A stretch of 64,000 nucleotides of DNA from Isurus oxyrinchus (lineage: Eukaryota), in assembly GCA_026770705.1 (NCBI GenBank), contig JANJGN010000136.1, positions 620,001 through 684,000 of the forward strand. Direction: 5' to 3'. Shown piece after piece: positions 3,430-6,400 of the stretch. Below the pieces are notes generated by a model that was not told the DNA's origin, ran no database searches, and saw only the letters and a list, made by a program, of their open reading frames with translations. Within the stretch, counting starts at the first letter, position 1; the number at the start of each line of letters is the position of its first letter. The position numbers were made by a program, and so were the translations under genes.

Positions 3430-6400
3430 ATAAAAAAAACAGAAAATGCTGGAAAAACTTAGCTGGTCTAACAGCACGAGGAAAATAAAAATAGTTTCCA
3501 CTTCTCTTTAGTTCTGAAGAAGTCATACGGACTCGAAACGTTAACTCTGTCTTTCTCTCCACAGATGCTGTCAGACCTGCTGAGTTTTTCCAGCATTTTT
3601 TGTTTTTGTTTCAGATTTCCAGCATCCGCACTATTTAGGTTTTAACTTGGTGTTTAATTGAATACTTCTTCTCTTCCAGGAATGCCTACCTTGCAGTTGT
3701 ACAGCTCTTCACTCTGAGAGGCTTTCCATGTGTCTCTTTTCCCCTGTTCACCTTCATTGATTTCTATTTCCCTTCTGGTGTTTGACAAGGTGTTTAGCAA
3801 AACTTGTTTTCACAGCCCTACTTCCTTCCACAGTGATTGTCCCCTTCTCCAATTTACCCCTCGTGGTTCCAACTGATGCTCAGTCCCTCATGTTTTGAAA
3901 CCGCTCAGGGCTACAGGTATTCCCGGGACATACAACCCTCCTCAGCCTGCTGCTCTCGCCGGATCCTGAGATCCACACTCAGTGCCATGCGCTTTTATAT
4001 GATGACACCCGAGATTTCTGTCCAGAATCACCTACTTAACCTATCTCAAAGCTGTCCTTGTCCCCAGTTTCATTGTATTCTTCCCCACATCCGGGGCCTT
4101 AAAAATAAGCCTTGTATCTTTAGTTCAGCTGCTAACGGGCGAGAGCTCGAACAAAGCATTGATATCAAAGCCCATCCAGGACCCTCCAACCATTTGGCCC
4201 TATTCCATCTTCCAATCCCTGCCCCGGCCTTGTTTTCTCCATCCCCTCTGACCTTGCCCTCTCTGATGCTGAATGTTCAGTACTCAGTAGAGTACTCACT
4301 TTCATACCCTTACGCCCTCACCTCAATGAATTGTGGGCTCGGCACAAGGCTGAATTCTTCTTACTCCGCCATCGACTCCATGTTCACTTCTTTGGACACG
4401 GGTCCACCACCCCCACCACCACCCCCCGGCCCCGCTCTCCCCAACCACCTTCAACGGACCTTTTCACCCGCCTCGAGTATTCTCCCTCCACTTGGATCCC
4501 TCCCACCGGCCTCTTACCTGCTCTTGAATTTTTCATTGAGAGCTGTCAGAGTGCCATCGGCTGTCTCAATTTCTCTGCTCCTCTCACCCACTCTAACATG
4601 TCTCCTTCTGAAGTTGCCACAATCCATTCTCTCCAGTCCAACCCTGACATTGTTATCAAATGTGCTGACAATTGTGGTGCTTTTGTTGACTGGCGCACTG
4701 AGGCTCTACCTCACAAAGGCTGAGCGCCAACTCGAAGACACTTAATTCTACCTCCACATGGAATATGACCCCACCACCAAACATCAAGCCACTGTTTCCA
4801 AGGCGGTCACTGGCCTGAACTCCTCTAGGGATCTGCTCTCCACAGCTTCCAACCAAATAGTCTCCTAACCTCGGACAGCATGCTACTACCTCCTCCCCAA
4901 AACCCACAAATGGCACTATCCTGTTTGATCAATCGTGTCAGCCATTTCCTGCCCAATGGAAATTATTTATTCCTATCTTGACCCCGTTGTCTCTCACTTT
5001 CTCCAGTCTCGTCCCACCTACATCCACATTTCCCCTGATCCCCTACATCATATCAACAATTTCCAGTTCCCTGGCCCCAAGTGCCTCCTCTTCACCATGG
5101 ACGTACAATCCATCTACACTTCCATTTCCCGCAAGGATGTTCTGAGTACTCTCCACTTTTTCATTGAACAGAGACCTGAACAATCCCCAACCACCACCTC
5201 TCTCCTCCGTCTGGGTGAACTTGTTCTCTCACTGAGCAATTTCTCCTTAAACTCGCCTCACTTGCACAAATAAAAGGTGTGGCTATGAGTAGCTGCATGG
5301 GCCCCAGTTATGCCTGTCTCTTTATGGGACATGTGGAGCATTCCTTGTTCCAGTCCTACTCAGGACCCATCCAACAATACTTTATCCGGTACATCGATGA
5401 CTGTTTCAGTGCCATTTCATGCTCTCATCTGGGCGTGGAAAAATGTTTCAATTTTGCTTCTAATTTCCACCCCTCCATAACTTTCACATGGTCTATCTTC
5501 GACACTTCTCTTCCCTCCGTTGACCTCCCTATCTCAACATCTGGCGATAGACTCTCCACCAATTTTCATTGCAATCCAACTGATTCACACAGCTACCTCG
5601 ATTACAACGACTCACACCCTGCTTCATATAAGGACTCCATCACATTCTCTCATCACTTCAAGTCCTTCACAACTGTTACAATGATGCCACTTTCCTAAAC
5701 CATGCTTCTGACATTTCTTCCTTCTTACTGAACCGTGGTGTCCCACACACGGTGGTTGACAGGGCCTTCAAGCATGTCCAACCCATTTCCCACGCCTCTG
5801 CCCTCACAATTTCCTCCCCCTACCAGAACCTTGATAGGTCATGTATTCACTTTTCAATCCATCAGCCTCCGCATCCAAAGGATCATCCTCCGCAAATTTG
5901 GCCAACTCTAACATGATGCCAACACCAAACACATCATCCCTTCACCCACCCTGTCCGCATTTCATATGAACCGTTCCCTCCGGGGCACCCTGGTCCACGC
6001 CTGCATTACCTCCAACACCTCAAAGCTCATCCCACGGCACCTTCCCATGCAATCGCAGCAGGTGCAACACCTGCCCTTTTACTTCCCCCCTCCTCAACCT
6101 CCAAGGCCCTAAACAGTCCTTCCCAGAAAAGCAGCGCTTCACTTGTACTTTATTCAAGTCTACTGCATTTGCTTCTTCCAATGTGGCCTCCTATACATTG
6201 GAGAGACCAAACACAAAATAGTGGCTGCTTTGTGGAACAAATACGGCCTGGAGACGAACATGACCCATACCTTCCTGCCACCTGCAATTTCAACACTTTA
6301 CCCTGCTCTCATGCCCACATGTCTCTCCCTGGCCTGCTACAATGTTCCAGTGAAGCTCAACGTAAACTGCAGGAACAGCACCTCAGCTTCTGATTACGTA

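Follow-up and report, generated by a model that had tools for sequence, protein, structure and literature searches.

A damaged, likely inactive minimal hammerhead motif in the pseudo-LTRs of a decayed Penelope-like element from a shark genome

Minimal hammerhead ribozymes (min-HHRs) occur in the pseudo-LTRs (pLTRs) of metazoan Penelope-like elements (PLEs), including the fish elements Xena, Poseidon and Neptune (Cervera and De la Pena 2014, PMC4209133), so a hammerhead within a pLTR is an arrangement already known since 2014. The tests described in that paper found no activity in monomers and low activity in dimers, and a role of the ribozyme in excision, even in active elements, is proposed there as a hypothesis. 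For one element tested in vitro, the Poseidon of Anolis carolinensis (PAc), normal insertion with a dead ribozyme has been reported (PMC11167929). The non-LTR retrozymes (PMC7229834; bioRxiv 10.64898/2026.07.22.740005) also carry type I hammerheads, which are dimer-dependent in vertebrates and related to those of PLE pLTRs, and the latter source reports retrozymes in one chondrichthyan. Within the PLEs, a CX2-5CxxC linker between the reverse transcriptase (RT) and the endonuclease (EN) marks the Neptune and Nematis groups (PMC8557442). Our search of openly available papers found no shark-specific description of such hammerheads, and sharks are not named in the two supplementary files of PMC4209133, out of three, that the search covered.

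Here we analyzed a hammerhead-like motif in a 64,000-nucleotide stretch of DNA from the shark Isurus oxyrinchus (the whole stretch is called the window below). We conclude, with a probability of roughly 0.86, that the motif represents a minimal type I hammerhead, now damaged, within the pLTRs of an old and broken PLE, likely a Neptune element, and that it is likely inactive at this locus. The features of the element are collected in Table 1.

Table 1. Features of the Penelope-like insertion and related repeat fragments (positions in the window)
Feature	Position	Strand	Basis or remark
Inverted partial pseudo-LTR, left end of the insertion, without tail	3432..3496	-	Reverse complement of 3543-3610; local alignment, inverted repeat
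Upstream pseudo-LTR, 5'-truncated tandem direct repeat	3495..3648	+	Alignment reaches 3495; contig pieces of other copies begin there
Minimal type I hammerhead, copy 1	3510..3546	+	CUGAAGA core behind stem I, hairpin of 4 bp, unpaired C3534, GAAAC-GUU
Predicted scissile bond, after GUU	3542..3543	+	Hammerhead numbering; holds if the ribozyme is active
Likely Penelope tail	3608..3648	+	Bounded by the most frequent 3' ends among family copies (3607 and 3636/3644)
Acceptor-like pyrimidine tract, AG 3678-3679, candidate start codon 3682 (tentative)	3663..3684	+	
Decayed Penelope-type reverse transcriptase, pieces in several frames with stops	4187..5862	+	tblastn, profile matches, homologues
CxxxxCxxC zinc-finger-like linker, Neptune/Nematis type	6048..6074	+	Motif as defined in PMC8557442
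Decayed C-terminal GIY-YIG endonuclease	6158..6423	+	tblastn pieces collinear with the P0016 C-terminus, E 4.6e-8
Downstream pseudo-LTR including the tail; closes the insertion on the right	6847..7001	+	Alignment to the upstream repeat
Hammerhead, copy 2	6862..6900	+	Full spacing kept; predicted inactive
Repeat-family fragments	25433-25539, 29051-29178, 32563-32655, 32995-33137, 36561-36599		
Repeat-family fragments	43544-43610, 48725-48772, 60727-60800, 62639-62846		

The original prediction had placed the motif in the terminal repeat of a Penelope-like element with RT and GIY-YIG domains, and this context is what we found: the RT, the linker and the C-terminal GIY-YIG lie between two direct repeats (3500-3648 and 6852-7001) that are 86.8% identical over 151 aligned nt. 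The homology of the RT and endonuclease was established by tblastn and a custom profile; a Pfam search of eight decayed ORF pieces returned no family. All 23 homologues that the RT piece recovered pass an E value of 0.001, and those with names are ray proteins (Mobula, Hypanus) with 54-61% identity, which points to a cartilaginous-fish host. One full-length homologue carries both RVT_1 and GIY-YIG, and P0016 carries PF01541. The locus thus shows the features of EN+ Penelope-like elements, namely a PLE-type RT with a C-terminal GIY-YIG, direct pLTRs, an inverted truncated copy and a tail of 30-40 bp. The ORF is broken by at least seven frame changes and by in-frame stops. Upstream of the RT, N-terminal homology for a start at 3682 was not significant (E 0.86), and a profile search of this region gave no match. 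We saw no target-site duplication in the insertion flanks when inspecting them by eye. The last two nucleotides of the inverted arm (3495-3496) are common to the direct copy. The linker suggests that the element likely belongs to the Neptune clade; compared with the Neptune-clade EN+ elements of PMC8557442, the ORF here is decayed, and the linker is shared with Nematis. Two ray proteins that match the RT at 54-59% bear host-gene names: P0004 and P0006 are labelled as a divergent kinase-domain isoform and a chitinase-domain isoform, an annotation that has likely absorbed a retroelement.

All parts of the hammerhead named in the original prediction are present in copy 1 where it had put them. 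The 5' strand of stem I (3510-3513) pairs with its 3' strand (3543-3546), and the core CUGAAGA (3514-3520) follows directly behind stem I, where copy 2 lacks a CUGANGA core. The hairpin AGUC/GACU (3521-3524 and 3530-3533) is followed by an unpaired C (3534), GAAAC (3535-3539) and GUU (3540-3542); the stretch 3535-3542 thus holds GAAA, then A15.1-U16.1 and a NUH triplet, which is GUU. Hammerhead numbering puts the predicted cut between 3542 and 3543. The core (C3-A9, G12-A14, A15.1-U16.1 and U17) is intact. Positions 15.2-16.2 are palindromic and there is no loop III, and the AACGUU palindrome, the half-site for helix III of a dimer, has a predicted self-duplex energy of -4.1 kcal/mol. Stem I consists of four Watson-Crick pairs in both copies; it is little populated in folds, and many family contigs differ at 3512. 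The bulged base between positions 9 and 10.1 and the G10.1-C11.1 closure of stem II are absent from both copies. The caution of the original prediction that this closing pair is not clean in copy 1 was well placed, as G3522 and C3534 pair with a probability of 0.0001.

To a large extent these parts match the min-HHRs of PMC4209133, which are likewise type I without loop III, with palindromic 15.2-16.2 and a short stem I, and which occur as one copy per flanking repeat about 3 kb apart, with many solo or inverted copies and high variability. Unlike them, copy 1 lacks the bulged base and G10.1-C11.1, and copy 2 lacks the catalytic G8. The hammerhead of PAc also lies in a pLTR whose two 3' ends bound a tail (PMC11167929). 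Its cut falls 26 nt inside the ORF, whereas the cut predicted here lies upstream of all matched coding sequence, and PAc has a ribozyme that is active with protein, while the present hammerhead is identified by its sequence. The non-LTR retrozymes differ in being short non-coding tandem repeats, in contrast to a full-length coding element with two repeats.

In order to assess how easily such a motif arises by chance, we compared the window with shuffled sequences. A pattern of the core, a spacer and GAAACGUH, defined by sequence only, matches the window once, and 2 of 100 shuffles also reach one match. When stems I and II are required as well, the single match in the window compares with none in 500 dinucleotide shuffles. 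The original prediction had named a covariance-model search for type I hammerheads as a check, and this came back empty: no Rfam hammerhead matches the window at the gathering threshold or at E values up to 10. The covariation score of nine copies in the window was reached by 100 of 500 shuffles, with stem I paired in 53% and stem II in 82%. The predicted monomer fold of copy 1 is the 4-bp hairpin (-2.6 kcal/mol), and shuffled versions of the 41-nt motif fold at least as well as the motif itself (z +1.46), which is unsurprising because the motif lacks helix III. In longer sequence contexts stem I of copy 1 does not form (pairing probability at most 0.0003). We consider it unlikely that the copy 1 motif is an assembly artefact.

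The decayed second copy anticipated at about 6861-6900 was also recovered, within the downstream direct repeat. It reads A at positions 5, 8 and 10.1, so that G5, G8 and G10.1 are lost, and G at 11.1, with loss of C11.1. The G5A substitution inactivates hammerheads. G8 acts as the general acid of the hammerhead and G12 as its general base (PMC11300833). The purine tracts of copy 2 (6868-6875) and of the inverted arm (3477-3492) have drifted to A runs, with several plus-strand G-to-A changes.

We examined the family more broadly by aligning the contigs of four sequencing runs to positions 3400-3760 (361 nt). The family is abundant, with 111,972 contigs of run X1 on this 361-nt stretch. In the assembled sequence, the purine tract of copy 1 (3516-3522) is 2 nt shorter than that of copy 2 and of a common family form, and the spacing between CU and GUCA is accordingly 6 nt in copy 1 and 8 nt in copy 2. 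Two extra letters behind 3520 occur in 48, 31, 5 and 2 contigs of the four runs, and a further 804, 401 and 73 contigs are clipped at 3521 with a consensus that ends in the longer tract. In this longer form an A is bulged out and stem II comprises 5 bp, with G10.1-C11.1 as the closing pair; the hairpin of copy 1 corresponds to the outer 4 bp of that stem. The short tract therefore likely explains the unclean closing pair, since copy 1, 2 nt short of the common form, is without both the bulged A and the closing pair. The gapped insertion makes up only 2-9% of the depth at 3520, and among the contig pieces listed, 6 of the 13 that start at or before 3513 are gap-free. These gap-free pieces may be copies of the short form, or may belong to a second subfamily whose 3-nt loop II gives an equal length. 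That subfamily is represented by 607 contigs of run X1 clipped at 3535, in which two compensated stem II pairs differ and stem II has an A-U closure. Another copy in the window (32605-32670, minus strand) has the short spacing too, with a paired 4-bp hairpin, so the short form may be recurrent or a minor lineage.

Other family-wide signals concern stem I, the 3' ends and the catalytic core. The consensus of clipped ends shows C at the position of 3512 in three runs (agreement about 0.5), which would give a C-A mismatch and therefore a weaker stem I, unless compensated. Family contigs end mostly behind 3607, 3636 and 3644, and the summed depth of run X1 falls about 80-fold after 3646 (from 904,912 to 10,793); both match the 30-40 bp tail of such elements (PMC8557442, PMC11167929). 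G12 reads A in 15-25% of the family depth, compared with 13-27% for a non-catalytic CpG in loop II. Because G12 decays about as fast as the loop CpG, most genomic copies of the family look like neutral relics.

For hammerheads beside related RTs, we examined 79 metagenome loci (from the best 80 of 342) with a descriptor that required stem pairing but left open the closing pair as well as the presence and side of a bulge. All 28 descriptor matches have the 5' bulged base and G10.1-C11.1, and none has the layout of copy 1; they show 19 different stem II sequences, and many of them come from loci related to one another. A matched endonuclease end followed by 600 nt or more of sequence is available for 37 loci, and 17 of these have a same-strand hammerhead within 800 nt, compared with 0 in shuffles. 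Two loci carry a canonical minimal hammerhead on each side of the ORF (L005 at 1028 and 4094; L019 at 269 and 3421), and three loci of related RTs have an inverted hammerhead copy. The L005 and L019 contigs would be better material for cleavage assays than the 3510-3546 locus. Scans with an exact 20-nt pattern matched no locus in metagenome contigs and none in viral contigs.

How far the locus could still function depends on how these observations are weighed. The original prediction proposed that dimerisation of the two terminal copies could excise a unit-length element RNA. Its geometry stands: the AACGUU palindrome and stem I are kept in both copies, and cuts after 3542 and 6896 would delimit a span of 3354 nt containing all matched coding sequence, as fits an intact ancestor. 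The claim is not supported for the copies seen here, which are damaged and flank a dead ORF. Because copy 1 lacks the closing pair and copy 2 lacks G5, G8 and C11.1, neither a functional dimer of these two copies nor release of the 3354-nt unit is likely, and with at least seven frame changes in addition, we give dimerisation at this locus almost no credence. The idea of unit excision can apply only to an intact ancestor. It is rather less far-fetched, but still quite improbable, that copy 1 is an active natural variant, in which a 4-bp stem II directly follows A9, an extra pyrimidine precedes G12 and cleavage occurs in trans with another family transcript. The intact core of copy 1, the agreement of its 4-bp hairpin with the predicted monomer fold, the second window copy with the same spacing and the gap-free contigs that cross the site would all fit such a variant, and the 111,972 contigs of run X1 point to plentiful partners. 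Against this stand the absence of the layout from all 28 hammerheads beside related RTs, the consistency of the bulged base and G10.1-C11.1 according to PMC4209133, the unformed stem I in longer contexts and the dead element body; no RNA run was listed as containing the locus itself, the RNA runs sharing 0.02 of its words, which is no proof of silence. The damaged, likely inactive hammerhead therefore stays our preferred reading of the locus.

A further question concerns the family as a whole rather than this copy. It is a serious contender, to which we give somewhat less than even odds, that even in intact elements the hammerhead does not make the retrotransposition template, being instead a passenger or serving a later protein-assisted step, with uncut RNA as the substrate. 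In PMC11167929, ribozyme mutants of the anole element insert unchanged, cleavage needs protein and no RNA-seq ends are reported at the cut, and the Naiad elements described in PMC8557442 thrive without canonical hammerheads. In our data, family copies reach 5' past the cut site, and 3543 is absent among the loose ends listed. Against this view, the motif retains both bulge and closing pair and occupies a constant position next to many divergent related RTs, and such conservation implies that the RNA is under selection during replication.

We also considered whether the inverted arm records cleavage. The sequence it copies (3543-3610) starts at the predicted cut site and stops close to the first 3' end of the family (3607), and the arm could therefore be read as a footprint of ribozyme cleavage in vivo, left by cDNA that ran off a cut RNA, and in addition splicing at the AG of stem I could switch the ribozyme on or off. 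A splicing-linked ribozyme switch has been suggested for the Penelope of Drosophila virilis, and the likeness consists of an AG within the 5' strand of stem I. In both copies here, a pyrimidine tract and AG stand at the start of stem I (3495-3511 and 6847-6863), as they do before the candidate start (3663-3679). The acceptor-like AG at 3510-3511 is weak evidence, because it is one of eight such among the 126 AGs in the element. The case for the footprint consists of a single arm that shares 2 nt of microhomology with its direct counterpart, and the 5' ends of 14 other repeat fragments in the window are scattered from 3501 to 3578, with one at 3540. We hold this combined reading to be improbable, at about one chance in ten. 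The acceptor-like tracts resemble the intron ends of Penelope, but such tracts are common in this C/T-rich strand.

Under the preferred reading of a damaged hammerhead in an old element, the following history would account for the locus. In an active ancestor, a transcript running through both repeats would have paired its two AACGUU palindromes into a common helix III, and the RNA would then have been cut after GUU in each copy, probably with the help of protein and at low efficiency, to give the 3354-nt unit. Since the insertion retains sequence to the left and right of 3542/3543, its RNA template had likely escaped cleavage at the upstream site or been rejoined there. Slippage in the GAAGAAG tract likely cost copy 1 its 2 nt, and copy 2 would have gathered its substitutions.

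Several other features of the window were recorded. A fold-back at 8086-8247 consists of two 79-nt arms with 94% complementarity, and each arm corresponds to the pLTR end of a sister subfamily; the arms have a 5-bp stem II, a bulged A and G10.1-C11.1, but both read U at core position 6 and have lost part of stem I. Rfam miRNA matches at 8083-8250 were rejected, since they are below threshold and merely reflect the palindrome. About a dozen more decayed solo or fold-back fragments of the element's own repeat family, from at least three subfamilies, lie in the window (Table 1). An intact-looking frame of 315 codons on the minus strand (9904-10851) encodes a seven-transmembrane receptor of the rhodopsin family (PF00001, E 1e-16). 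The Rfam threshold is also reached by three tRNA-like sequences (39579-39651; 62380-62451, minus strand; 45854-45927), two of which look degenerate.

Taken singly, the locus matters little, being one eroded example of a motif already in the literature. Its family is very abundant and has several ribozyme subfamilies, which makes a genome-wide count of truncated and inverted copy ends informative. Such counts could test whether Penelope hammerheads cut in vivo and whether the cut RNA ever serves as template. If inverted arms were found to pile up at the cut site genome-wide, shark genomes would document for the first time that PLE hammerheads are active in vivo.
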